A stretch of 64,000 nucleotides of DNA, taken from assembly GCA_017499595.2 (NCBI GenBank), contig CM038999.1:124001-188000 (forward strand). Direction: 5' to 3'. The position numbers were made by a program, and so were the translations under genes. The DNA comes from Psilocybe cubensis. Lineage: Eukaryota. Positions 10,915 through 49,227 of this stretch are shown here, piece by piece; the first letter of the stretch is position 1; each line of letters begins with the position of its first letter. The notes under the pieces are model-generated. The model saw only the letters and a program-made list of their open reading frames with translations. It did not search any database and was not told the origin of the DNA.

Positions 10915-13900
10915 TTAAAGGTGGGCGTCCGGGATGTTGTGGAGGCGTATGTAATTGTTTAGTACTTCAGAGTTAGGGAAGGATGAGTGGCTTGACCACG
11001 AAGCGTCTTCCTCTGTGCAGCCATCGAGCAGCACGAGGAACTGTGTTCCACTGCGCAGGGCCCTGTGGCCGAGCACACTTGCAATGTCTGGGGGTGGTAA
11101 CGCGGGGGGAGGTGTTGGTGTCGCGGGTGAAGTTTGGGAATCGAATTCTGCTGGTATGAAACGGGAGAGTTTAGAGACATGGAAAGTAGGGTGGATCGAC
11201 CACGAGGCCGGTAGGTCGAGGGTGTAAGACTGGATGCCAACGCGTTTCGTCACAGGAAAAGGTCCGTGACGCTTAACATCGAGCTTTTTAGACGGACGTG
11301 AGGACTTGATGTCGGAGGCGCTGAGCATCACCATGTCGCCAACATTGAAGACGGGTGGAGCGCGGTGAGAGGTGTCATAGGATCGCTTCATTGCATCAGC
11401 GGCGAGGTTTAGCGCTGAAGCGGATTCCTTCGCGAGGGAATCCATTTGAGAGGCGAATTCAAGAGCTTTGGGGACACGGTCGTCCGAGAGGCGTGCGGGT
11501 TGCAGGGTTCGGCGGGGGTTGGAGCCATAGTTTAGGAAGAAGGGCGAGAAGCCAGTGGACGAGTGAATCTTATTGTTGATAGCAAATTCGGCGCATGCAA
11601 GCCATTCCACCCAATCATTTTGCCTGTTATTCACAAAGATCCGTAGGTATTGTTCGATTTCTTGATTGACGCGCTCAGTTTGTCCGTCTGTTTGAGGTCG
11701 AAATGCGGTGGACGCGTTCTGTGAAATGCCTAGCAGGTCGTTGAGGGCCCGAGTAAAGTTTGACAGGAAGATTGAACCACGGTCGGAGATGATGCGTCGT
11801 GGCAGTCCGAAGTCTTTCCAGACATGGTCGCGGAAGAGGCGCGCGAGACCCTCAGAAGTGATTGACTTTTTGCATGGGATGATACGAACCATTTTTGAGA
11901 GTCTATCGACGACGACAAAGATCGAATCGAAGCCGCGAGATTTAGGTAAGTCCACGATGAGATCACAGGAAATGATCTCCCAATTGGAGGAAGGGATTTC
12001 GTTGGGGGTCAGTAGGCCCGCGGGCGCCATCCTCAGAGGCTTAGTTGATTGACAGGTGGGGCATCCATCAACGTAACGCTTCGCGTCTTTTGATAGTGAC
12101 GGCCACCAATAGTCGCGCAGGACGAGTTCCATGGTCTTCATCCGGCCAGGGTGGCCTACGGATTGGTGATCATGACAGTCGGCGAGTATTCGTTGACGCA
12201 AGTTGCCTTTGTTTGGCACAAAGATTCGGTTATGCCATGAAAGCAAGCCGTCGTGGAGGGACCAGCCAGGCAGGTTCTTGTGCTTTTCCCACATTTCAGT
12301 GATTTGGTGCTGGTGAGTTCGAATGTCAGCCAGGACGGGGTCATCCCCAATTGAGCATTCAGCAGTACGTCGAATGTGTTCTGGGCGCAGTAAGGTGACG
12401 TTTTCGTTGTCGCCAACACCTTTATCGTAGTCGGGGCGGCGGGACAACGAGTCTGCGCAGATCATGGTCGGGCCTGGCTTGTGGACGAGTACGAAATCGA
12501 ATTCAGCGAGCTGCAGGGACCAGCGAGCCTGACGACGGTTCAATTTCTGAGCGGTCATGAAATACTGAAGGTTCTTGTGATCGGTGTGGATCTCAACAGG
12601 AGAATCGGAGCCGTGGAGGTAGCGTCGCCAGTCATCGAGAGACCTCATGATTGACAGTAGTTCGCGGTCATGTATCTCGTAGTTGCGCTCAACGGGACTG
12701 AGGGCTTTTGAAGCAAACGCGACCGGTTGCCAGGAATTGTCAACAAATTGGCTGAGCACCGCGCCGGTTGCGTATCCAGAGCTGTCTGCCTCTATGCGGA
12801 ATGGGGCACCGTCGCGGGGAAGAAGTAGCACCGGGTGTGAAGCGCAGGCGGATTTGAGCTCGTTGAAGGCGGATGTTGACAAATTGTCCCATACCCAAGG
12901 CGCCGAACCACCCAGGGCATGCAGGGGAGCGGCAATGCGGGAGAAGTTCTTGATAAACCTACGGTAGAAGTTGACGAAACCGAGGAACTGTTGGACGTCC
13001 TTACGACAGCGCGGGATTGGCCAAGAGGTGATAGCGTCAACTTTCTTGGGATCCATGGACATTTTCCCGTGGCCGACAATGACGCCCAAGTATTCCACAC
13101 GGTCCTGCTCAAAACAGCACTTTTCTGGCCGCAGATAAAGCTTGTTGTCCTCCAGAATCTGCAAGACATTGCGGACAAGATGTCGATGGGACTGGACATC
13201 ATCAGTGAAGATGAGGATGTCATCCATATATATCACGACATGGCCGCCAGCAATGAGATCCTTGAACAGATCGTTCATCATATTCTGGAAGGTAGCTGGT
13301 GAGTTTGTCAATCCAAAGAACATTACAAGAGGCTCAAAAAGTCCAAACTCCGTGATAAAGGCAGCCTTGTGCTCATCGCCTTCCCTGATACGAATGTTAT
13401 TGAAACCCCAGCGGACGTCAAGTTTGGTGAATACTTTCGCGCCTTTAAGCTTGTCCATGAGGTCAGAGATGAGCGGCAATGGATAGCGGTTCTTGATCGT
13501 GATATCGTTCAGGCGTCGGTAGTCTTGCACAGGGCGCAGTGAGCCATCCTTTTTCTGGATGAAGAAGAAAGGGGCGGCATAGGGAGAGATGGAGTCCCGT
13601 ATACGGCCAGTGCGTTTTTCCTCTTCTATCCATTCCTTGACCTTCGAGGTTTCAGCGGGCGACAGACGGTACGGCTTTGCTTTGAACGACTTTGCATCTG
13701 GTTTCAGGTTAATAGCATGATCCCATGGGCGACGGGGTGGGAGCTCGTCAAACTCCTCTTTGGAGAAAACAGGTGCAAATTCCTTCAGGTAGCGGTCGGG
13801 ATATGAAGCTGCTTCACGTTGAGTTCGCAAAAAGTGAGAAATGCGGTGGTCGCATGAGCCATGGACTTGTTCGGACGTGAACTCATTGAGGTCAACCGCG

Positions 13901-15180
13901 CACATCGATTCACCATCGGCAAGTTCACCAGCAAAGGCGTCAGCCCATTCCGCAGCAGAGACCGGCGTGAAGGGGCCCGGGCTGTCATCAAAGATGTCGT
14001 CTTCACGGAGCTGGGGTCCTTCGCGGCAAACATTCACGGTTTCGCCATCAGGGTGCGAAGTCGGCAGCACGTCAGCACCACAGGACGTGGGGCAGCGTGC
14101 AAAGCAGAGCTTGGCCTCTCGCCAGTCAACAAGCGGATTATGGAACCAGAGCCAGGAGTGCCCGAGGATGAGGGAAGATGATCCCGTGTTGGTGACTGAA
14201 AGGCGGAGTCGCTCAACATGGTTTTCAATGCGGATGACAAGGTAAACAACATCTGTGATAGCACCGTTGGCATTGCGAGTTCCGTCTGCATTGTAAACGC
14301 TAACGGGGTGGGGCAGCCGCTCAGTCACCCATCCATTGAGTTTGACAAAATCGGAGTGCACGTAACAACCAGTGGCACCGCTGTCTAAGAGCGCTTTCAG
14401 CGACACCAAAGAGGTCGAGCCTGGGGGTGCAGCCGACATTGGAATGTCAAGGCATTTACTCCCCATGCGGGAGATGTAGTCGCGGGGCTTCTTGAGCTGC
14501 TGGAGGACTTTGGCGGCGTCGGTCCAGGGGAGATCGCAAAGAGCAGCAATCAGATCATCGTCAATGTCGTCCCAACGCTCCTTTGGGGCCCAGGATTTGA
14601 GCAGGCTCTCGGTTCGCCAAGGCGTGCTGCGTAATCGGCGCAAGTTGCACAGGACGGTGCGGACAGGTGTAGGGATTGAAGGCGGGCAGTCTGTGTGGTC
14701 AGCGACGGGCGGGCTGCAAAGTAGAGAGTCGCGTGGGGCCGGTGGTGGACTTGCATCGTGTGTCATAGAGACAGATGCATCATCGTGGGCGGAGGTTTGT
14801 TGAGCAGGCTTGGTTGGCGAATCTTCATCCGAATCATCAGAGGCATCTGGGGCTTGCAGCTCTGGTGGATCATCCTCAGGACAGGATAAAAAGAGGTCTG
14901 AATATGGAATGCAATCGGGTGCCATAGTTGGAGGTTGTGGGTGCGCGGGCAGGAGTGTTGGTGTCGGGTAGTCGGAGTTGGGTGATGTTGTTGAAGAAGA
15001 GGGCTTGTCAGGAGTCAATACAGAATTGGATAATGAAGGTTGAGGGGTCGCGTAAACAGGTAACACGGGCAGAGGTACGGATTTTGGAGACAATGCAACA
15101 TGCAATTTGGGAGTAATTACAGGGTTGTTGTACAGAAGCGGCGAGGACGTACTACTCACTCGACGCAAGAAACAAAATCC
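10915..15180 (-). CDS. pol: Pol polyprotein (protease, RT, RNase H, integrase, divergent chromodomain), probably expressed by -1 frameshift
   Basis: LLDSGATG protease, YMDD RT, DSSG/ELLS/TDHKNL RNase H, H-H-C-C zinc finger, SDRG...QTERVNQEIE integrase, GPF motif and a chromodomain-like tail. Uninterrupted ORF of >1400 codons. Confidence 0.95.
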   Translation of the reverse strand, partial: GFCFLRRVSSTSSPLLYNNPVITPKLHVALSPKSVPLPVLPVYATPQPSLSNSVLTPDKPSSSTTSPNSDYPTPTLLPAHPQPPTMAPDCIPYSDLFLSCPEDDPPELQAPDASDDSDEDSPTKPAQQTSAHDDASVSMTHDASPPPAPRDSLLCSPPVADHTDCPPSIPTPVRTVLCNLRRLRSTPWRTESLLKSWAPKERWDDIDDDLIAALCDLPWTDAAKVLQQLKKPRDYISRMGSKCLDIPMSAAPPGSTSLVSLKALLDSGATGCYVHSDFVKLNGWVTERLPHPVSVYNADGTRNANGAITDVVYLVIRIENHVERLRLSVTNTGSSSLILGHSWLWFHNPLVDWREAKLCFARCPTSCGADVLPTSHPDGETVNVCREGPQLREDDIFDDSPGPFTPVSAAEWADAFAGELADGESMCAVDLNEFTSEQVHGSCDHRISHFLRTQREAASYPDRYLKEFAPVFSKEEFDELPPRRPWDHAINLKPDAKSFKAKPYRLSPAETSKVKEWIEEEKRTGRIRDSISPYAAPFFFIQKKDGSLRPVQDYRRLNDITIKNRYPLPLISDLMDKLKGAKVFTKLDVRWGFNNIRIREGDEHKAAFITEFGLFEPLVMFFGLTNSPATFQNMMNDLFKDLIAGGHVVIYMDDILIFTDDVQSHRHLVRNVLQILEDNKLYLRPEKCCFEQDRVEYLGVIVGHGKMSMDPKKVDAITSWPIPRCRKDVQQFLGFVNFYRRFIKNFSRIAAPLHALGGSAPWVWDNLSTSAFNELKSACASHPVLLLPRDGAPFRIEADSSGYATGAVLSQFVDNSWQPVAFASKALSPVERNYEIHDRELLSIMRSLDDWRRYLHGSDSPVEIHTDHKNLQYFMTAQKLNRRQARWSLQLAEFDFVLVHKPGPTMICADSLSRRPDYDKGVGDNENVTLLRPEHIRRTAECSIGDDPVLADIRTHQHQITEMWEKHKNLPGWSLHDGLLSWHNRIFVPNKGNLRQRILADCHDHQSVGHPGRMKTMELVLRDYWWPSLSKDAKRYVDGCPTCQSTKPLRMAPAGLLTPNEIPSSNWEIISCDLIVDLPKSRGFDSIFVVVDRLSKMVRIIPCKKSITSEGLARLFRDHVWKDFGLPRRIISDRGSIFLSNFTRALNDLLGISQNASTAFRPQTDGQTERVNQEIEQYLRIFVNNRQNDWVEWLACAEFAINNKIHSSTGFSPFFLNYGSNPRRTLQPARLSDDRVPKALEFASQMDSLAKESASALNLAADAMKRSYDTSHRAPPVFNVGDMVMLSASDIKSSRPSKKLDVKRHGPFPVTKRVGIQSYTLDLPASWSIHPTFHVSKLSRFIPAEFDSQTSPATPTPPPALPPPDIASVLGHRALRSGTQFLVLLDGCTEEDASWSSHSSFPNSEVLNNYIRLHNIPDAHL

Positions 15181-16340
15181 GAATCATCAAACAAGGCACT
15201 TTCGTCAACATCAACGCATCGAATCTCATGCTTGTCGTCATCAGGCAAAGCATCAAAGCACTCGAGGACGGCCCGAGCTCGTTCCAGTTTTGCGCGTGAT
15301 TTGCGTTGGAATTCGAGATCTTTGGGTTTGGGGCAGACTCGCATGAAGTGGCCAAATACGCCGCAGTTAAAGCAGGGCAGGGCGGCACGTCGATTCGGAG
15401 CAGCGGAGATGTTTGCAGGTAGAGTCGCGTTGGGGGCAGGAGCAGCGGGGCGGGGGTTGCTAGACTTTTGAACAGTGGAAGGGGTGGAGGTGAAAGAAGG
15501 GGGAGGACGCCAGGTGGCGGTGGTGTTGACGACCGGAGTCACCGTGGCATCAGTCTCACGCAGTCTGTGAGCCATCAAGATTGCGGCACTCTTCCATTCC
15601 GCGAATGTGGGCATCTCACGGTGTGTTCGTCCAATCTCCTCCATAATACGCTTATCCAAGGCCATTTTGAAGCATTGGATCAACGCTTCGTCGTTAAACT
15701 TGGAGCGAAAGGCAAGGTTCTCGAAGATAATAATGAACTCTTGAGTGGGCGTGGAGTTCTGACGGATGCACATGATCTCGCGTGCCGCGCGTTGTTGCGA
15801 GAAATGGAACAGGAAGGAGTCTTTCACGCGCTCCTCAAAGTCGGACCAGTTGGTTAAGACGCATTGCCCAGACTCTAGCTCTTCAATGAGCTGGTTACGC
15901 CAGACAGCGGGCGTGCCGGTCTTGAAAGAACTGAGAGCGGTGCGTACTTTGGAATCAGTGGTTTTGTATGCTTCGGGGTCGGAGTGAAAAAAGTTACGCC
16001 ATGAGGCCAGCAAGTCTTCGACAGTATCAGAGGAGCCGTCGAAGGCACCTGGAAAGGGCACCTTATAAGCGCGTGAATCACCAGAGCGGGCGGTAGAGGT
16101 AGTCGCAGAGGAGTGGGTAGAGGTTTGGAGTTGGGGTAACGCGAGGAATGATTTGAACATAGTTTCGGCTTGTATACGCGACAGTTCGAGAATATCTTTC
16201 ATAGTTTCTTTATTGGATTCCTGGCTAGCCTTAATGAGAGCGATAATGGCAGGGTCAATTCGGGACACAGTGTCGTCATCACTACCGTCACGACCACGAC
16301 GGGGGGAGACCGAACGACCTTTACTTTTTCCGGGAGGCAT
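15156..16340 (-). CDS. gag: Gag protein, 394 aa
   Basis: Retrotransposon capsid-like region (PGAFDGS...WSDFEERVKDSF...IRQ) and CCHC knuckle CFNCGVFGHFMRVC. Confidence 0.93.
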   Translation of the reverse strand: MPPGKSKGRSVSPRRGRDGSDDDTVSRIDPAIIALIKASQESNKETMKDILELSRIQAETMFKSFLALPQLQTSTHSSATTSTARSGDSRAYKVPFPGAFDGSSDTVEDLLASWRNFFHSDPEAYKTTDSKVRTALSSFKTGTPAVWRNQLIEELESGQCVLTNWSDFEERVKDSFLFHFSQQRAAREIMCIRQNSTPTQEFIIIFENLAFRSKFNDEALIQCFKMALDKRIMEEIGRTHREMPTFAEWKSAAILMAHRLRETDATVTPVVNTTATWRPPPSFTSTPSTVQKSSNPRPAAPAPNATLPANISAAPNRRAALPCFNCGVFGHFMRVCPKPKDLEFQRKSRAKLERARAVLECFDALPDDDKHEIRCVDVDESALFDDSDFVSCVE

Positions 16341-34451: not shown

Positions 34452-37400
34452 CTAATGGCGCATTGTGTGTTTAGGAGATCCATAATGTGTATGAGCAAAA
34501 GTCTGCGATCTGTAAATGGGTTGGTATAAGACTAGCGCAGTGCGCTCGTCGATGACTTCCAGACGGGAAATGAGGATATCGACAATTGATTGGTATCCTT
34601 TCTTTCGTGCAAGTCCGAGTGCTGTATTACCATTGAGGTCTCGCAAATTGATGTCAATGGCGGTGAATGCAAGGAGTCTTTTCACTGTCTCAACGTGACC
34701 ATTACAACATGACCATGTAAGGGCAGTAAACCCATAATTGTCTTGAACATTGACATCTACCTGCGAAAAATGAAGGATAGCATCCACAATCGAGCAATAT
34801 CCTTTACTCGAAGCATGCATGAGAGCGGTCCATCCATTGGTATCTTGTGCATTGGCATCGACTTCCGGCGCAGACAAAATCCGCGTAACAACATCACAGT
34901 GACAGTTGTATGATGCCCATGTCAGCGCCGTGAATGCAAATTTGTCTTGGGTATTTACATTCACCCCTGGAAAGGAAAGGATGGCATCCACAATAGAGCA
35001 ATAACCATCTTGTGAAGCATATTTGAGAGCCGTGAATCCATCGGTATCTTTCGTATTGACCTTTATACCGGGGACAGATAACAGGCGCTTAACCACCTCG
35101 AGGTGACCATTTCCTGAGGCCCATGACAGCGCTGTGAGTCCAAGTTCGTCTTGTATATTTACATCCACCTCCGTAAAACAAAGGATGGCATCCACAATAT
35201 GGTAGTAACCACTACGTGAAGCATATACAAGAGCCGTCCTTCTATTGATACAGTGTTGATTGACTTTTATTCCGGGGACCAATAACAGGGTTTTAACCAC
35301 CTCGACACGACCATTACCAGACGCCCATGACAGTGCTGTAAATCCAAGGTTATCTTGGATATTTACGTCTACCTCCGGAAAACGAAGGATGGTGTCCACA
35401 GTAGAGCAATAACCATCTCCAGAAGCATATATGAGAGCTGTACATCCGTTGGTACACTGTATATTGACATTGATATTTGGGACAGTCAAAAAGCGCTTCA
35501 CCACATCAAGACGGCCATGAGCTGATGCCCATGTAAGAGCTGTATTTCCCCACTTGTCTTGGATGTTCACGTCAACTTCCAAGGAACCTAAAAGGGTGTC
35601 CACGCAACAAGGGTATCCCATCCACGAAGCATACATAAGAGCTGTCAGTCCATCGCAATCTTGACCATTAACATCAATTCCAGAGACCGTTAAAAGGCAG
35701 TGCAAAACGTCAACGCGACCATGACCAGCTGCAAACATAAGCGCTGTAATTCCACAACAGTCGAAACATGTGTGTTTGAGGTCTAATCCAGCGAGGAAGG
35801 AATCCATATTTGGGTAATCATTGCTTCCACTAGTATACGAGACCAATATGTGACTGGGCTGGTTACCCAGATTGACATCAATTCCGGGAATGGTTAAAAG
35901 ACATTTTACAACATCTGTCTGACCTGCAGATGAAGCGATCATGAGCGGTGTCATTCCTTCAGCATGATCAATGTGTTTTCTTGCCGAGTATCGCAATTGC
36001 ATACGAAAGAACTCGTACAACCGATCTGGCCCCCTTATGTACACGTTGGGATTGATGCTCCCGGATGTCAGGAGAATATTAACAATTGGCACATGGCTTT
36101 TGACAGCAGCACGGAAAAGGGCCATTGTAACCTTATGGTTTGAGATGTCAAGATTGGTGTTAGAAACTGGGAAAAAAGCTTGCACAATGTTGTTGTGGCC
36201 ACGAAGCACCGCGACGGACAGTGCTGTAAGCCCATTTCTATCTCTCAAGTCTGGATTGAGTCCTGGAATGCCTAATAGCCCTTTAAATATTTCTAAAGAG
36301 TTTTTTGTGGCAGCAAGCAGCAGTGCAGTGTGTCCATTTTCATCCTGGGCATTAACCTCAATTCCAGGAGTCCGAAGCAAGAGTCTAGCAACATCTGTAC
36401 GATCCTTTAGGCAGGCATATAGAAGGGCAGTGCGCCCGTTCAAATCTTTGACGTTGATGTCGACGTCGAGGCACGAAAGAAGGACACGTACGGCGCCAAG
36501 ATGACCAATACGTGACGCGTGCATGAGGGCAGTAGCCCCTCTGGCATCCTGAAAATTTGTATTGATTTTTCTGTTCGAAAGAAGGTCCGAAATAATATCG
36601 ATGTGACCAAGGATTGAGGAATACATCAACGCTGTGAGGCCCCGTTTGTTGCATAAATTGGGGTTGGTGTCTTTGCGGAGAAGCAACATGTTTACAATGG
36701 TTTTATGGCCTTCCTTGCATGCGAGAATAAGTGCAGTGTCTCCGTTGCTCGTCTGCGCATTGACATCAATACAACTACATTCAAGAAGGGTCTTGACCAC
36801 TGTGATGCAGCCATTCAATGCAGCAAGTGTGAGAGTCGTGTGTTTCTTTGTTGTACGCAAGTTGCAATAACCATCCCAGGATAACGGCATCTGTAGTCCA
36901 TGGTATGCAATAACATGGCTCGGATCAAGCCAACTGAAACCAATTCGAGAGTCAAACAACGGATAGTTGGGAGTTTTTAGGACAAAGTTGTGTACTGTTT
37001 CAGTTGGATATGATTCCCCCTCACACTCTCGAATGTGAGCTGTCCAATTCTGATATGCGTATTCGAGTAAAGGAGCGTCATGAGATTTTACAAGGGCCTT
37101 GAATGCAGTATATGTCAGCTTTTCCAGTGTGGTGAAGCGGAAAGCAGTGAGGTAAGAATTGCATGTGTTTCCAATAAATGCGTGTGGTGCTTTGATGAGA
37201 TACTCAGGCCAATTACTCAGAAACTCGTACGCTGTATGATCTAAGCATAGATTTTATATCAGTAACACCACCCCAGCGAGCCTGAAAAGATAGATTGACT
37301 GACGGACAAGACGAACAGTTCCACATCTTAGCTGGATTTCAATGATTCCGCAAGACGAAGCAGTGATCATATCTTCAGCAGGAATGTTTCTTTCATTGAA

Positions 37401-38814
37401 TGAATTCTCTCCCTCTCGAATAGCAAGTGCGTGTGCGAGCTCAGCAATGGTCAATGGGCGGCGGGCATACATGATCCAAGTAATAGCCCGTTTTGCAAAT
37501 GACGGGTACTCCCCTTTTTGAGAATTGATCCTGTCCATCAAGGAGATATACATTGATTGTACATCGTCGCGGAGTCCGTCTAGACTGTTTGATAAACTTG
37601 TCATGGTGGTGTACCCCTGTAATGACTGTGACCTGAGCGTCGCAAGTAGGAACCTGGGAAAGGATTGAACACGCATTCGAATCGTCATAGATAGAATAGG
37701 ACACGCACATTCCACCCGAAATATTCAATATTTTATTACATATTTCCTCCAAAAAACCCTCGTTTCTTCGCAATATCCGAGCGACACTAGCCGCTTTTGG
37801 TATGGTCTCATGGAGAAATAGACGGATATCCTCATGATTTTGGTCCCCGATGGTCATGTGCACTAAGTCCTGTGGGAAATCGAAAACCTCGAAGCCAATA
37901 ATTCGTGACGTGAACAATAATGATGCGGGAAGAGCTCGGAGAATAGATACGAGCTCAATCTGATCACGATCCGGCAACTCGTCCAAACCATCCAGTACAA
38001 CCCGAACATGTTTGAATGCTGATACTATGTTGGAGAGAATTGTGACCAACTCGGTTGTTGAAGGATAGCTTTGTCGTGTTTGATGCAGATCGTAAAATCT
38101 ATGGACATGCTCTGCAACGACTGGAAGGCCTCTGTACCTTGTGAGCATCTGGCCAATTAGGGACCCCAAATATTTTGATATAGTCCAGGATTCGTTGTGT
38201 CGACAGTACAGGAATAGAACAGCATTACAGCCTCTGTCATCTGAGAGGCCGAATTCCATGAGGTATTCAATGACAATTGCTCTAGAGTTTGGGGATAAGA
38301 TATAAATACAAAATATGTTCATATAAACTCACGCGAGCACGGTCTTTCCTGATCCAGCTATGAACTAGATGATTAGCCATAGAAATCACTGAAGCAAAAT
38401 GATATGCACGCTTTCCGTCCAACAACAGAATACTTCTTTGTACAGATACCCAGCTGTTGAATTGGGTAGAAGACAAAAACCACTCCCCGGTTCCCGGCGT
38501 GCGTTTCGAAAGGGTATCGTAGTGAATTTCTTCTGACCTTATATGTGTTAACCATTGTACAATACCACTAAGTTCTGCCCAAGCGATCAGGTCCTTTGTG
38601 TAAATTGTGCATATTTTGTAATAAATACCCTGATTACGGGAGTGCACATCTCCATTTCCCATATACACCGTCTCCCCCGCAACAATTGTTGGCTTATGGA
38701 GATTGGTGAAGGTGGCATTGGTGTACGCGCGCAAACCTACAAAGGTACCATGTGCTGTCAGCGGACAATCTAACCAGCAGAAGCCTTGGCCAGAAGTGCA
38801 CCTGTTGAAATCAT
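34452..38814 (-). CDS. Fungal NLR-like protein: short N-terminus, NACHT, winged-helix region and ~21 ankyrin repeats
   Basis: Spliced gene with RTPGTGEWFL, Walker A GKP|GSGKT, Walker B VVLDGLDE, WIMYARRPLT..EL..AL, RLVH|HTAYEFL and PLLEYAYQNW, followed by ~21 TAL-type ankyrin motifs. The start at 38814 (MIST|G) is inferred from a 65-nt intron. Confidence 0.9.
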
Positions 38815-41767: not shown

Positions 41768-42002
41768 TGTGATGACTCGCTCGACTACTAGATTCCTTGT
41801 TTAGTGTAGACTCTCGTGACTGCATGTATAGATTAGATAACGGACACTATCGGTCACTCTAGTTAGGTGTTGGATGATATGTATTTCTGATTTGACTGAC
41901 TATTTGGCTGACAAGTTTGTATGACTCGTTTAACTACGTAGTTAGTTAGCTTCAGAATTCTTGTCGTATATAGTTCTCGGACTCGTCGAGTTGATTCCTC
42001 AC
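41768..42002. repeat. Possible solitary/relic LTR
   Basis: Ends TGTGATGACTCGCTCGAC ... GTCGAGTTGATTCCTCAC form an imperfect terminal inverted repeat and the size is LTR-like. No partner LTR or TSD was found. Confidence 0.3.
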
Positions 42003-42910
42003 GGAATCAACTCAGTGCCAGATTCCAAAATCCCATAATCCATTTCGGGCACCTTCTCCTTTTGTATATTTTGAGTCTCTGACAATCTGTTGGACAGTAT
42101 CTGACTGTTATTTATGTACTTAAATTCCGGCTTTCCATTCATCTCAAGGTTACAACTTGACTGTAATAAATTATAGCTGTGCTTGATGTATTTAAAGCAT
42201 AACGAAGTAGATGTCAAAACTTTCCTATAAAAGAGAAAGTTACGAGTCTTTACGTAAGTAAAGATGAGTTCTTTTATCCCCACAACCCAGCGAGCAAAAA
42301 TGTCCTCGCCAATTGTCCCCATCAAAATATTATTGATGCGATCAATGTCGTTACCGCTATCGGTATTTTCCTTAAGCGGTCACCGGACCCCCTAAGCAAC
42401 CCCTTTCCAATTCATTCTACGACTTCTTTTTACCATTGGTTACTTTAAAGGTTGTTTTTGATTTGTTTTGATCGCAATGTGAATGTGCGTTTCCATAAAA
42501 TTAATTATACCCAACAACAATAGTCCTACTCAATTCACTTTTTTGCGTTGTTGTTTAATTTTTAAAACCATGTGGAACCATCTAGCCAACATGCTTATAT
42601 ATTGTACTAATACTTAGAGATGGAACAAATGCACTCTTTGAACTATGGGTCTGAAAGGTTGGAAATAGAACTGTGCAGGCACACACGTTCCTTGATATTG
42701 GTAGCTTCATCAATCAGAGTTCAAATAGAAATAATTACGTGTTCTTGGGTTCTGGGCGTTCTGTACTATTTGAATTTGATTTCCTGATTCATGATCGTTT
42801 CTCACGCATACCAATTTGTTCTTCCCCTACGTCGGGCATCTATTGGCTTACAGTTAATATATTTATTGACGTAGTATAGACAATGCACTTTTCTCCGCAC
42901 TGTTTTACCC

Positions 42911-45866
42911 ATGGCTTCCGCGTTATCCCCCCGTTTCCAACAGTATGTTCACTGTTTTATCTCATTTGGTTATTACTTATTTTTTAGAGTCTTTCCGCCT
43001 CCCATGGACGATGTGTACATGGATCAGATGGATCTGATAACCCTCTACCGTTTCTCTTAGACTTGCAAGGAGCTAAACGACAGCGTTTCGGGCTATATGC
43101 ACCGCGCCTTCCGTCCCAAAAATTTATTTGCTCCTATCTTCAAACCCAATGAACATTTGCTGTTTTGTCTTCTCTAGTTCAAGACTGGCCTGGTTATTTC
43201 AGGTTCCACCGTTTTGCATTTTACTTGTTTTAGTGGTCCAACGCAAAGCGTGGCATGACAAGACTTTACATCTCACAATTGTATAAAATATTTTTTAATC
43301 TAGATTTATATAACATAGTTAATATATATTAATATGTTCTGAATGTACAGCCAGATACTGGGCAAGGTTATGATTAATTACTATGACTTAGGTCTACTAC
43401 AAGCTTAGTTGTGTCAGACACAAAAAATAGCTGCACAGGTTATAAGGCCTAATTGTAAGGAAGAACTTGTCTATTATAATTTTCATACCTGCTAAATATT
43501 GAAGAATTTCAGATCTGCTGGGAGAATCCCGTATGGAAAACTGATGGAAGAATGCTCATGTGTATGGCTGCCCAAGTGGGGACATATTTCCCATAAATAT
43601 AATTTTCTTATTTTTGAAAAGTGCATCAAGAGTGAAACAATATTGTGTGCAAAAACATTTGTTTGGTGCGCATATTTCTTTTTGGCATAGTTTGATGTTG
43701 CTGTGAACACAATTGGCTGTGTGGAAACATATTTCAAGCATAATTTGCAAGTGTTAGTGTATTATTTCTTCCCCAAAATACATTCAATGCATGGAAAACA
43801 TTATTCAAAATGACCATCCCTTGACCAAAGTGGCCAGTGCTCAATGCAAATTGAGTGTAGTGACCGTGGGAATATCCTGCGTACAGTGTGCGCAGGATAT
43901 TCCCACGACCTGCTTATTAATTCACGGCCAGTACAAACACCACAACAAGTAAAATATAATAAGATCATCTAAACTAGGACTGAAAATAATTATTATTGCC
44001 AAAAATACTTGTATTTTACCTAAAGTATATGCAATGCATCTCAGTAATATATCAGGAATTACCAGAGAAGTTCAAGTTGCTCAATGCAAAGTGCGGCAAC
44101 CGTGAGAATAACTTGCATACACTATATGCAAGTTATTTCCACAGTCTGCTTATTAATTCATGGCCAGTATGAACAGCACAACAAGTTTAATATGACAAGT
44201 TATTTGAAGTGGCATTAAAGATAATAGCTAGATACATAATGTTTATTATTCTTTATTCTATGCCACCACAGTCTGCTAGTCATTCATGCTAAATTTTTTT
44301 TGATAACAATAAAGCATTCTATTTACCTCTACTTGCCATTAGAGGTGTATAAAGCATGCAAAACAGTTGGTATGTAATTGATTGTGACTAATTAATAGCC
44401 TTAAATCAGTTGAATGAGGTCATTATTATAAAATTTTTGGTTATGAGCGATGATTATCTGCGTCAAAATGTTTAACTTGCAATTAAAAAGTCATAATGTA
44501 ATGGTATCTAATTTTGTTTTCTACCATATGGCAGCTAACCTATCTACCTAGCTAATATCTAGTATTTTAATTTCCATATCCCCTTGGTAGGAACAAAAAC
44601 TAACAGAAATTCTATGATAGTAACCGATTATTAAGTCAAGCATACCGGTTAAGTAAAAAACCGGTATTAATCACGCAATTTTGATGGCATCAATGATTTA
44701 CTGATGGGGACAATTGGCAAGGACATATTTTTGTACAGTGGGTTGTGGGGATAAAAGAACTCGCTTTACTTACATAAAGTTTTGTAATCAATCGTGCTAA
44801 TATATGGATTCCGGGTGACATGGACATGTATGTCGAGCACAGATATGCTCTTCCCGTTCTTTCCTGGATAATGTCCATTGGATTTACTATCATGCCGCAT
44901 CCCAAATATCCGGACAACACCATAGCGGAAAAAATTTTGAAAATGGAAAAAATCGTCCTTCAGAAACATCCTCTTCATTGACATTACAATACCACTGGAG
45001 TGGTCGTTAACCTATGGTGCCAAGGTTCTTTTGTCCAACTGATTACGACTTGTCAATCGGTGGTAGAGTACATTTTGGGGTATCATAGCAGTATGTCCCC
45101 AATGTCATGTGTCAAAACAATGTTAACTTCAATTTTGTTCTACTGCAGCCGGCGTCATGAATTTTGTTACCTTTGAGAAGGTGTACAGCCTGTATCCAAA
45201 TGCTACCTTTGGACATCAAGTCTCTCTATTGCAACCTTCTGCCAACCTCAAGCGCGCGCAAAAATTTCTTGCAAAATATCATTCCCGTGGCTTGAAATAT
45301 GTTCTTTCCATTCCATCGCAAACTTTGAAAATGGACCGCCATATCCAAAGCAGGATACAGTCTATCAGGGACAACGTAAATGTTGGGTATAGTTCATCTC
45401 GTGGTCATGTTCTCGTTGTGCTGGATTACGATCCTTATCCAGAGTTGTTCTCTTCTGGGATTAGATGGGTTGGCAACAGGCATTGTTGGGTTTATTCTTT
45501 GCCTCTTTTACCCAAAGCAAATCAGACTTCCTTTGTTGAAGCCAATTTGTGGGCATTGTTGCTCAATGAATTTGATTATTTGCATTTTGGTGTCCGTCGC
45601 ATCAGCGGTATCGCATTAGATTTTCACTACACAGCGGCAAATGTTTACCAATTACACAAGTGTGTCAAAAAAGCTATCAAATCCTGGGAAAGGGGTATAA
45701 GGTGTGTGCTCTTTAGTTTTAGTATTTGTCAATTTAATTCCTGTAATGTAGGCAAAAAGATGACCGTGTACATGCAACTGTTTTGTATTTGCTATCCAGA
45801 AAGGCAGATATTTTTTGGTTGCATTGCCCTCAACCACAAAGCCTCTTGTGGAATGGATATTTGTAA
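42911..45866 (+). pseudogene. Decayed F-box-like + nucleotidyltransferase-like gene inside the outer element
   Basis: Reconstructed as PPPMDDVYMDQMDLITLYRFS*TCK...TGLVISGSTVLHF|INRANIWIPGDMDMYVE...VQLITT...ILGYHS|..VMNFVTFEKVYSLYP. It has three in-frame stops plus the nested insertion. GS...DxD spacing suggests a pol-beta-type NTase (inference). Confidence 0.6.
43223..44786 (-). mobile_element. Nested, inverted non-coding element of the same Helitron-like family (inner)
   Basis: 44690-44786 is the reverse complement of the outer 5' end and 43223-43272 is the reverse complement of the outer 3' end. Removing it restores the host frame (LHF|INR). Confidence 0.78.
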
Positions 45867-46219
45867 TTTCTTCCATCCTTAGTCAAATTTTTGTTCGAAA
45901 TAAACTTGTGTTCTCGTCCTCATTCTTTTTGTCTTAATTTGTAAGTTTGACTTGCAGATGAGCGTGGGAATATCCTGCGTACAGTGTACGCAGAATATTC
46001 CCACGGTCAACCTCTCCCGATATTCAGCCGAGTGTGGGAATATTCTGCGTACAGTGTATGCAGGATTCTCCCATGGGGTGCCAACTAACACCTTCAGATA
46101 ATTTCTGTCATGAAAATGACTTGACAAATTATTCCTTGTTATTTACAATATTCACGCAAATGGATTGATTGTTCGTTCAGCACATTTATGATATCCTTGT
46201 CTTTCTATGTACATATGTA

Positions 46220-47194
46220 TTAATCTTGGGACATAGTATTGCTATTGTGGACTGTGTCCTCATTTAAGCGCATACGTGCCATCCTCTGTTGCGTGTCTTC
46301 AATGTCAATCTGACCTTTGTACAGCTGCCTCTTTGTCCTACACAAAACAGCAACCTGTCTTTTTGCTGGAGTATAGCACGACCGCATTCTGAGAATATCA
46401 GCTTTCTGTTGGAAGTTATGAATGGCTATGAGACTGTTCAATGTAACATTGCTTACCTCTCTTGCCTCCTGGTCCAAGACAAGTATTCTGCGAAGAGCGA
46501 CAACAAATTTGTACTTGTTTCCTTGGGCAGGAAATGCAACAAAGGCAACACTGATCTCGACAATGTCTCCAATTCGTATGGAGGCAGGATTATAAGAATA
46601 ATATCTGTTGCAACATGATATTAGTTTGGTTGTGATGTGTTGTTGGTATTTTCTAAACATACCTGGCTGTTCCTTCAGGAAGTATCTCCTGACGAAGAAA
46701 CTGTACCTTGTTATCAATTGCGTGGATGAAACTGTCCCCTACCATGGACGCCAACACGTTATCAGGGTCAACCAGGGGATGAAAACCTATGTTGTCAGAT
46801 TTGTCTTGATATGCGGATACCTTCGTGAAATATTGGCTATGCGCATGGAAAACATTGAAACCTGTGTCTTTGTGAAGAACTGGGTCATAGCCGCTGACGC
46901 TGTCCGCGGGAAAATTGTTTGCAAAACGGAGGAAAACTTCTTCTAGCTTTTCCATCACCTTATTGAACACAATGTCTCTGAGTCCCGTGATAGCAATGGC
47001 GGTACGTAAATATGGTTGTTGCTTGACCGTTCTGTCGCAGCTGTAACAGTCCTCATTTGTAATTAATTCACCTCAATGGAGTGGACGTATGAAGCAGGCT
47101 TTGCCATTGGTGGTAGCATCTTGTCACTAACTATGCCTTGGAGTCTGAATATCACTTCGTCCATTGCACCGATATCCACGTCAAAGTTGGACAT
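46220..47194 (-). CDS. Uncharacterised spliced gene (DEVIFRLQG...VDP...GDIVEISVAF...LRRILVLD) inside the outer element; possibly OB-fold-like
   Basis: ORF pieces 46653-46970 and 46220-46600 plus an upstream exon are joined by GT-AG introns. The C-terminal half is beta-strand-like. It may be 5'-truncated at the (AT)n tract at ~47195-47228. Confidence 0.55.
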
Positions 47195-48165
47195 ATTTAT
47201 ATTATATTATATATATATTATATTATTACAAAGCGTGACGCTGAATCGTAAAGACTCGTCATGCCACGCTCCGCGGTGGCCCACTAAAACAAGTAATGTC
47301 AGGATACTGAGACGGTGTGCGGAGTTCAAATATATGGCCATCATTGGCCACCAGCCACACTCGGTGCTCGACGGCATCACAAAAATAACTCAACGAAGCC
47401 GATTGGTGCCGACTCAAATACGTAACACAATCCTGCAGAACGTCGCGTCTACCTTGTACGGGACGAGCCCTATGACTCTAATAGAGGACTCGCAACTTAA
47501 ACTTTTACTATATTTACATAACCATCCAGCGAATCTACACATATATTTCACCTTCTTCACCCTTCGATATGGCACGAGGCCGCTTTTAACTGCTAATATA
47601 ACCCAAAGCTCGTAATAAATCCCCGCATTGTTGCTTTCTTCCCAAGAACCCCGTCTTGCACTGTAACATAACACAGTTCATGTCCTCTCGCACTCGGGTA
47701 ACTGGTGAGCATGTTAAGGAACAGGTACAACACTCCATCTTATCCGCACTCCCTCTTTGTACTTGCTCACCTGTCACTTTAGGGGAATGTGGCCTTTAAA
47801 TTGGGCGACTACGCATTGGCAAAATCTCTCTATACACACGCCATGCGTTTTGACCCCAAGAGCCATATCTACCTACTCAATCGACCCTTTGCGAACCTGA
47901 AGCTTAGACGGTAAGATCTTTCTCATCTTCCCCAGCGTCGCTGAAACATTGATCATCATCGACTCCCAATAGATGGGAAGAAGCGGTCGTGGATGCAAGC
48001 AAAGTCCTCGAACATTCCCCATACAATTTGAAGGCCCTATTAAGGCGATCACAAGCTCATAGGGAATTGGGACAGTGGTCGGATGCAAAGAAAGGTGTGA
48101 TGAGTTCTTTTGAACACCGACTTTTTATTGCAATTAATTGAATCACTTCAGATATCCAGACTTTT

Positions 48166-49227
48166 ATGGCCCATGGAGGAGATTCCCAAGTTGCTAGTAA
48201 AGAATTAGAGAGCATCACAAGCGCACAGGAAAGCAGTCCAGTACCAACGTCAACGCAGAAGCTCGAACATGCCATGGCTCCTCTATGCAGCGAGATGCTA
48301 GTTGACAACCACCCTTCTTTTATCATCAGCAACTCCACCTCTATACCCAAAGGTGTCGGTGCATTTGCCACACGAAATCTTAAATGCGGAGAATTGATAT
48401 TATCAGAAGTCCCCACATTCACCATCTTGGAAAATCTTTCTGAACGTGCAAAGGTTGCCTCAATTGAGTCGGAGGTCCTTTCACTTTCTCCAGTTATACT
48501 TAACCAATATCTGTCCCTCCATAATTCACATGATGATTGCGGCTGCGACCGAGGCAATTCAATCATAGTCGGAATATACGCCACCAACACTTTCACTTTA
48601 ACTGACAATAAAGCAGGAATTTGCATGAAGTCGTCCAGGTTCAACCATTCCTGTGCGCCAAATGCACGATACTCCTTCAACGAGCGCAAAGGACAGATGA
48701 CAGTGCACGTGTTGACTGATATCAAGAAGGGCGAAGAGATCTTTGTCATGTATATCATGGGCAGGGGTCTCTATGGGACACCTTCTTCGCGCAGGCAGAA
48801 GGTGCTAAGACAGAGGTACCATTTCACATGTGCATGCAAAATCTGCTCCCTTCCACCCGCAGAAGCAATGATGAGCGATTCCCGGCGCGAAAGGCTTGAT
48901 GTTCTGTGGAACCTCATACCTCGGTTTACGCCCACGCAGGGAATTCAGCGGCTGAAAGTCATCGTCCAAGCCGTGCAGTTGATGAAAGAAGAAGGGTACC
49001 ACGCAGATGCAGATGATTACACAAACGATGCGGGTGTGGTGTGCGCATACCATCGCGATTGGGAATCAACAAAGTACTGGACGGAGATGACATATAGGAT
49101 TAGGGTTGAAGAGTTTGGAGAGGATAGTTCGAGGGCTGAGGAAGTGAGAGCCGCATATCTTGATCCAACTTCGCTTCCGATGGCCGGAATGGGGCCGTAC
49201 TTGCCTTTCAATCATATTCGACTATGA
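48166..49227 (+). CDS. SET-domain lysine methyltransferase (SMYD/Set5-like), intronless, 353 aa
   Basis: KGVGAFATRNLKCGELILSE, RFNHSCAPNA, IKKGEEIFVMY, post-SET FTCACKIC and a helical C-terminus. Confidence 0.9.
   Translation: MAHGGDSQVASKELESITSAQESSPVPTSTQKLEHAMAPLCSEMLVDNHPSFIISNSTSIPKGVGAFATRNLKCGELILSEVPTFTILENLSERAKVASIESEVLSLSPVILNQYLSLHNSHDDCGCDRGNSIIVGIYATNTFTLTDNKAGICMKSSRFNHSCAPNARYSFNERKGQMTVHVLTDIKKGEEIFVMYIMGRGLYGTPSSRRQKVLRQRYHFTCACKICSLPPAEAMMSDSRRERLDVLWNLIPRFTPTQGIQRLKVIVQAVQLMKEEGYHADADDYTNDAGVVCAYHRDWESTKYWTEMTYRIRVEEFGEDSSRAEEVRAAYLDPTSLPMAGMGPYLPFNHIRL

Follow-up and report, generated by a model that had tools for sequence, protein, structure and literature searches.

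The window analysed here, a 64,000-nucleotide stretch of the Psilocybe cubensis genome (G000:C2:124001-188000 in the searched assembly of 46.6 Mb and 21 contigs), contains a 5054-bp transposable element into which a 1564-bp relative is inserted in the opposite orientation. The two units and their features are listed in Table 1. Both have the ends of Helitron2 (HLE2) elements, confirming the nested arrangement that a preliminary description of the window had proposed, and all the end sequences it quoted were found where it had placed them. Its statement that neither unit encodes a RepHel also stood: the inner copy carries no genes, and the RepHel belongs to the parental sequence missing from the outer one. 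The 5-kb nested element represents a new family within a kind of transposon already described, HLE2. Very probably, it is a non-autonomous element that arose when a 26.4-kb autonomous element lost internal sequence; one full copy of that autonomous element survives at G000:C3:3668727-3695134 with its RepHel opposite to the polarity defined by the ends.

Table 1. Features of the nested HLE2 composite (positions in the window)
Feature	Position	Strand	Remarks
Outer non-autonomous Helitron2 (HLE2) composite	42240..47293	+	5054 bp, 5'-TT...CAAG-3', directly before target T 47294
5' asymmetric terminal inverted repeat	42242..42254	+	Length 13 bp; lies 2 nt in from the 5' end
5' hairpin over the inverted repeat	42247..42264	+	7-bp stem, 4-nt loop, -4.7 kcal/mol as DNA
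Cargo gene A	42911..45866	+	F-box and predicted class II nucleotidyltransferase fold; spliced gene with the inner copy inside it; three stops in frame here
Inner non-autonomous relative	43224..44787	-	1564 bp; gene-free member of a sister subfamily; 5' repeat decayed
Family-specific palindrome within the inner copy	43861..43907	.	A second, degenerate unit lies at 44097-44143
Two units of the same palindrome	45959..46075	.	Flanked by the 3' ends of the convergent genes A and B; copies differ in the number of units
Cargo gene B	46220..47194	-	Spliced; no stop in 4 tested exon segments here; homologues beside related RepHels
TA-rich tract	47193..47226	.	Immediately right of the deletion junction (~47194), where ~22.8 kb of the parent, including the RepHel, is missing
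3' subterminal inverted repeat	47247..47259	+	Ends 34 nt short of the 3' end
3' hairpin	47263..47280	+	Directly follows the 3' repeat; compensatory changes among related families

The inverted repeat of the outer element is perfect over 13 bp, a length reached by none of 3000 random placements in the window (the best, 12 bp, occurred twice). As previously described, the inner copy has the same two ends (79% identity over 145 nt at the 5' end and 88% over 49 nt at the 3' end), but its own inverted repeat has decayed and pairs at only 10 of 13 positions. Between the outer and inner subfamilies, the repeats differ by a single compensated A/T swap. The 5' hairpin was weak in the outer element, decayed in the inner copy (-1.9 kcal/mol) and strong in a related 24-kb family. 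Across eight related 3' ends, 89% of cells in the 3' hairpin were paired and three of seven pairs showed two-sided change, a figure that is no probability as the sequences are related. The features of canonical Helitron1 elements (5'-TC, CTRR-3' and insertion between A and T) were absent in either orientation, and an Rfam search of 41800-47800 gave no match.

Searching the genome with a 3'-end pattern yielded 56 matches (28 outer, 26 nested inner and 2 free inner-family ends), and a control pattern gave none. The 5'-end query detected 29 outer-type ends among the 40 scored of 56 candidates. By coordinates, these ends formed 26 outer 5'/3' pairs recurring genome-wide; three 5' ends had no partner, and neither did two 3' ends (748-bp, 5'-truncated). 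We analysed 25 of the 26 pairs, omitting one copy interrupted by another copy; the inner unit was present in 22 and absent in three. All 26 nested inner ends lay within outer copies at one identical position, and free inner-family copies showed 80-85% identity along their full extent (97% in one 100-nt fragment), so the nesting took place once and the composite then spread as one unit. The nest is thus the founder state of a multi-copy composite and not a local event. Read depth over the composite in two sequencing runs was about twenty times that of unique flank. The 18 copies shorter than 5.4 kb differed from their consensus by 0.5-1.5% (about 0.8%), and 620 of 733 substitutions were C>T or G>A, with CpG changing about nine times faster, a pattern that fits the decay of methylated repeats. 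Two copies were further rearranged: at G000:C14:211452-215134, two composite 5' halves are fused head to head inside the inner copy, close to its palindromes, and at G000:C1:4181387-4191569, a composite is inserted in the inner element of another composite, forming a four-level nest.

Empty sites were found for both units. The inner site, carrying a single T, was empty in three older genomic copies and, in two sequencing runs, in 39 and 40 reads, all of which hold gene A in its joined, un-nested form. The earlier claim that excision of the inner copy restores a reading frame was borne out on removal of the 1564 bp, but three stops remain in the window copy, two before the inner copy and one after it. 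An empty outer site, again with one T, was present in a paralogous repeat. The window locus itself was empty in run X1, in which a contig skips the 5054 bases at a depth equal to that of the flank, with only 26 letters on its short side. These single-T sites agree with the reported lack of duplication at the junctions, as does the absence of any duplication longer than 3 bp in 23 of 25 full copies. The base preceding the element was a purine in 22 of 25 genome copies and in all five metagenome 5' ends, and the base after the target T was T in only 10 of 25 copies. With single-T empty sites and a purine before the T, strict insertion between two Ts does not hold for this family; it is a tendency and not a defining rule, since published HLE2 targets also vary (between TTTT and T/C, or between TNAT and T, in the portions available of PMC3627910 and PMC5148889).

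All 5' ends in the genome copies begin with TT and all 3' ends read CAAGT, such that the invariant span runs from T to T (42240-47294), while the empty site holds one T. The 26.4-kb copy has a perfect 45-bp flank duplication, which is parsimonious only if the first T belongs to the element and the last T to the target; this places the boundaries at 42240-47293 and 43224-44787. The lengths and opposite orientations given in the preliminary description therefore hold, but its coordinates (42241..47294 and 43223-44786) shift by one base, to the left for the outer unit and to the right for the inner one. A second long duplication (41 bp, offset by 5 nt, seen in the flank sequences) accompanies the copy at G000:C5:313153-318231. 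The 41- and 45-bp duplications have identical first seven bases, at the target T.

We then searched for a RepHel-encoding master with the same ends. The genome holds 22 Helitron_like_N matches, one of which sits between composite-type ends, in the 26.4-kb copy on C3, whose ends are exactly those of the composite. Its RepHel frame is open over 2781 codons on the minus strand and matched DUF6570 (Pfam E 2.5e-42), Helitron_like_N (1.7e-31) and PIF1 (5.4e-29), with HUH, YxxxY and Walker A/B motifs; the first ~400 codons may not be coding. A language-model search related its tail to UCH/USP peptidases (0.94, 176 features), although Pfam gave no match there. DUF6570 was used for the HLE2 assignment as a published marker, and reversed RepHels are on record in the same literature, as far as the available portions go (PMC5148889, PMC3627910, PMC11417382, PMC4067079). 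The preliminary description had named Helitron2 and Helentron together. The ends, target and RepHel master support Helitron2, whereas Helentron in the strict sense does not apply, as no endonuclease domain was matched by Pfam across the entire frame.

Several observations connect this copy with the composite. Its identity to the composite consensus is 95.5% across 3.46 kb and rises to 99% in the final 101 nt. The C3 copy carries only seven private C>T changes, compared with 36 in the composite founder and 43 and 58 in two 8-9 kb copies on C6, and is therefore the least decayed member of the family. The two C6 copies lack a 17.9-kb block that contains the RepHel. This block is single-copy in the genome, its junctions show no element ends, and a 451-codon frame spans the left junction in C3. 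It contains a gene A paralogue and four family palindromes, which were absent from 11 scanned regions of other RepHel elements. A decayed sister element on C5 (69% nucleotide identity in RepHel) likewise carries a paralogue of gene A, and upstream of its RepHel lies a matching repeat-hairpin-CAAG end followed by T. These points together indicate that the reversed RepHel is native. The palindromes were considered as a cause of the RepHel inversion, but this was unsupported, as the reversed C5 sister has none.

That the C3 RepHel belongs instead to an unrelated element which inserted into a long non-autonomous copy, with the true master missing from the assembly, might be suggested by its opposite strand and by the two other long copies without it. 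A precedent exists in the inner family, as a copy at G000:C7:3335822-3343761 does carry a broken, canonical-type RepHel piece as a passenger, along with a long terminal repeat (LTR)-like insert. However, the end-less junctions, the junction-crossing frame, the palindromes and gene A paralogue inside the block, its single-copy state and the sister with the same layout largely refute this reading, and we consider it very improbable. The C7 fragments themselves were rejected as a master: the piece is broken, it is 95% identical to a locus without these ends, and it is accompanied by the LTR-like insert.

Even less credible is a cut-and-paste element (DDE, of the miniature inverted-repeat transposable element type) or a tyrosine-recombinase element with a 1-bp T duplication. 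A one-T empty site with T on both sides when filled is formally also a 1-bp duplication, and an inverted repeat is present. That repeat, however, is asymmetric and has a covarying hairpin behind it, the C3 duplication makes the 5' T part of the element, and RepHel genes lie between the same ends in the genome and at four metagenome loci. No DDE or tyrosine-recombinase master turned up in the long copies examined. A different proposal concerns only the source of the transposase: the composite burst may have been driven in trans by the 24-kb sister family, whose RepHel is in sense, and not by the C3 lineage. This would be compatible with descent from C3. The 24-kb family is very young (99.97% identity between two copies), has at least seven Rep matches, and, like the composite, has the GACTCGT repeat and CAAG before T, with the same first 9 nt and a similar hairpin. 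Beyond those motifs, however, its repeat and hairpins diverge, its Rep domain is just 66% identical to that of C3, the composite burst (0.8% decay) predates its own, and the exact composite ends are found on C3, making this source of RepHel unlikely.

Descent from the C3 lineage by internal deletion remains the preferred reading, and several facts weigh against it. C3 differs from the composite by 4.5% and is therefore a sibling of the donor and not the donor itself, and its open frame is a weak sign of youth, as 2.6 stops would be expected at the decay level of the composite. No end-to-end joint, as in a circle, was present among the 15 listed of 29 joints from four runs. Two of the 25 copies have long flank duplications, and three partnerless 5' ends against two partnerless 3' ends give no 3' excess of the kind seen in algal Helitron2. 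The end motifs of the very young 24-kb family would make it a possible mobiliser. Transposition itself was not observed.

From these data, we infer the following history. The parent lineage would have lost the RepHel block, with the 8-9 kb C6 copies as intermediates, and one copy would have shrunk to 3.5 kb. A 1.56-kb element of the sister subfamily would then have entered gene A in the opposite orientation, and the resulting composite would have been copied as one unit about 26 times. By analogy with the Helitron2 family, RepHel acting in trans would nick one end via its HUH/Y2 site, PIF1 would unwind one strand, and the process would stop where the inverted repeat and hairpin form; the strand would be joined between a purine and T, mostly without a duplication. 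In the literature, initiation at the hairpin/CAAG end is favoured, as Bao and Jurka proposed for Helitron2 (PMC3627910, available portion), but their argument rests on a 3' excess that is absent in this family. The inner copy, on the other strand and with a decayed 5' repeat, was probably a passive passenger; the decay of this repeat and the absence of closely similar free copies suggest that it is immobile.

We compared the family with described systems, each through the available part of its source. Helitron2 elements were described with a 5' T start, short asymmetric inverted repeats and hairpins at both ends, usually without duplications but with occasional long ones of 44 and 50 bp; in algae, long duplications, short extra sequences and a 3' excess were reported (Bao and Jurka 2013, PMC3627910). 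The present family resembles that group in its T start, repeats, hairpins, compensatory end changes, rare long duplications and, as in some members, a reversed RepHel. It differs in its target (between a purine and T, compared with TTTT|T/C) and also in having no Fanzor cargo and no 3' excess. FoHeli4/5 of Fusarium oxysporum, termed 'HLE2-reverse' (PMC5148889, PMC11417382), are likewise fungal HLE2 with a DUF6570 RepHel facing away from the hairpin end. In contrast to these, the end sequences differ, the host is a basidiomycete, and the parent, which carries about eight or more genes, measures 26 kb, compared with 9-11 kb. A survey lists UCH, F-box-associated and single-strand-binding-like domains as HLE passengers, with UCH in a separate frame, whereas the UCH-like part here lies in the RepHel frame (PMC11417382). 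Like Helentrons and their non-autonomous HINE/DINE-1 partners (PMC4067079), the family has 13-bp subterminal repeats, a 3' stem-loop and deletion derivatives that outnumber the master, and one reversed RepHel is known there; unlike them, it has no detected endonuclease domain and no variable T run at its ends, and T follows the target T in 10 of 25 copies. HELPO1/HELPO2 of Pleurotus ostreatus (PMC4289320) and the TET-bearing Helitron2 of Agaricus bisporus (PMC12730594) are agaric elements with extra genes of unknown function and are likened here by description only. A literature search, limited in reach and without Repbase, found no paper on this family or these cargo pairings.

Related elements were found in the genome and in metagenomes. 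Two 24.2-kb copies, 99.97% alike, have RepHel in sense and the repeat-hairpin-CAAG end followed by T. In this family (G000:C5:2903900-2928130 and relatives), we also observed an Spt5-like gene (Pfam E 2.7e-4). An 18.6-kb Helitron at G000:C4:329370-347970 has its own asymmetric repeats, a reversed RepHel split over several frames, and gene A relatives. Among the best 80 of 363 metagenome loci, five had the same 5' start and hairpin; four of these also had the matching 3' end, all with RepHel in sense, and three of them represent a single element in three different flanking contexts. Soil-type metagenome contigs contain complete Helitron2 elements of 10-16 kb with the same TTACGAG...CAAG ends.

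The proteins of both cargo genes were 91-97% identical to database proteins labelled Psilocybe cubensis, and neither gave a Pfam match directly. The gene A model, built from a 94-sequence alignment, had a predicted local distance difference test (pLDDT) score of 80, with a predicted F-box and a CCA-enzyme-type nucleotidyltransferase head that matched the CCA-enzyme fold (Z 10.3, root-mean-square deviation 3.9, 173 aligned). In the GS...DxD motif, G83 was invariant and S84, D100 and D102 were conserved in at least 90% of the 94 sequences. Gene A is therefore predicted, from motif and model, to have a class II nucleotidyltransferase fold. A Pfam F-box was found in just 14 of the 94 homologues. 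At E<=0.001, gene A has 1022 relatives. The inner unit interrupts it in every composite, and it also occurs in the C3, C5 and 18.6-kb elements of this genome. It was found beside none of the RepHels at the 80 metagenome loci, only 28 of which reach 10 kb. Gene B homologues were present in the 24-kb family and at 11 of the 80 loci. Gene B was stop-free across the four tested segments in 16 of 22 composites; as it starts at the deletion junction, it is probably 5'-shortened. Its model, from a shallow alignment, reached a pLDDT of 39 and a best Z of 4.8 on the C-terminal helices only.

The palindrome measures 42-47 bp, and all 100 listed of its 182 matches lay inside family copies. Its arrays sit between convergent gene ends, namely those of A and B and, in the parent, also the RepHel end. 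Among the further genes of the C3 parent, one is acidic and AT-hook-like, one is Cys-rich, and one is a second F-box/nucleotidyltransferase paralogue. Another contains an HxD motif, seen by eye, which we take to be JmjC-like; Pfam and PDB sequence searches with this gene were both empty. One homologue lies beside a RepHel, at one of the 80 metagenome loci.

Around the composite, the left flank (41768-42240) is itself a low-copy repeat, with raised depth and many variants, and a SET-domain gene adjoins the right side. The regions 34452-38322, 57080-59407, 48166-49227 and 10915-16340 hold this gene, NACHT/NPHP3_N and ankyrin (NLR-like) genes and a Gypsy gag-pol that is intact. A dispersed family of genes for small, secreted, cysteine-rich peptides, about 70% alike, occupies about seven places in 17972-54600; the frames tried gave no Pfam match.

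In gene annotations, the element, which is polymorphic between isolates, inflates two predicted genes about twenty-fold. More broadly, we tentatively propose, as a possibility we rate rather low, that an agaric HLE2 lineage flipped its transposase relative to near-constant ends, being reversed in C3 and its sister and in sense in the 24-kb family and the metagenome relatives. The elements may then be virus-like multi-gene replicons with accessory genes serving transposition (the putative single-strand-binding gene B, the F-box nucleotidyltransferase, the deubiquitinase tail and a chromatin-type dioxygenase), with the palindromes as control sites. If so, the 5-kb composite would be a satellite that keeps a helper gene, with gene B open in 16 of 22 copies and gene A destroyed. 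The intact, apparently young reversed parent and its short derivative would then allow a direct test of which end starts replication. The Helitron2 mechanism has been inferred and not reconstituted, and for the initiating end and the either-way orientation of RepHel this genome offers a ready test set, with an unbroken reversed master, a young sense sister family sharing its end motifs, and natural mini-elements of 3.5-5 kb.

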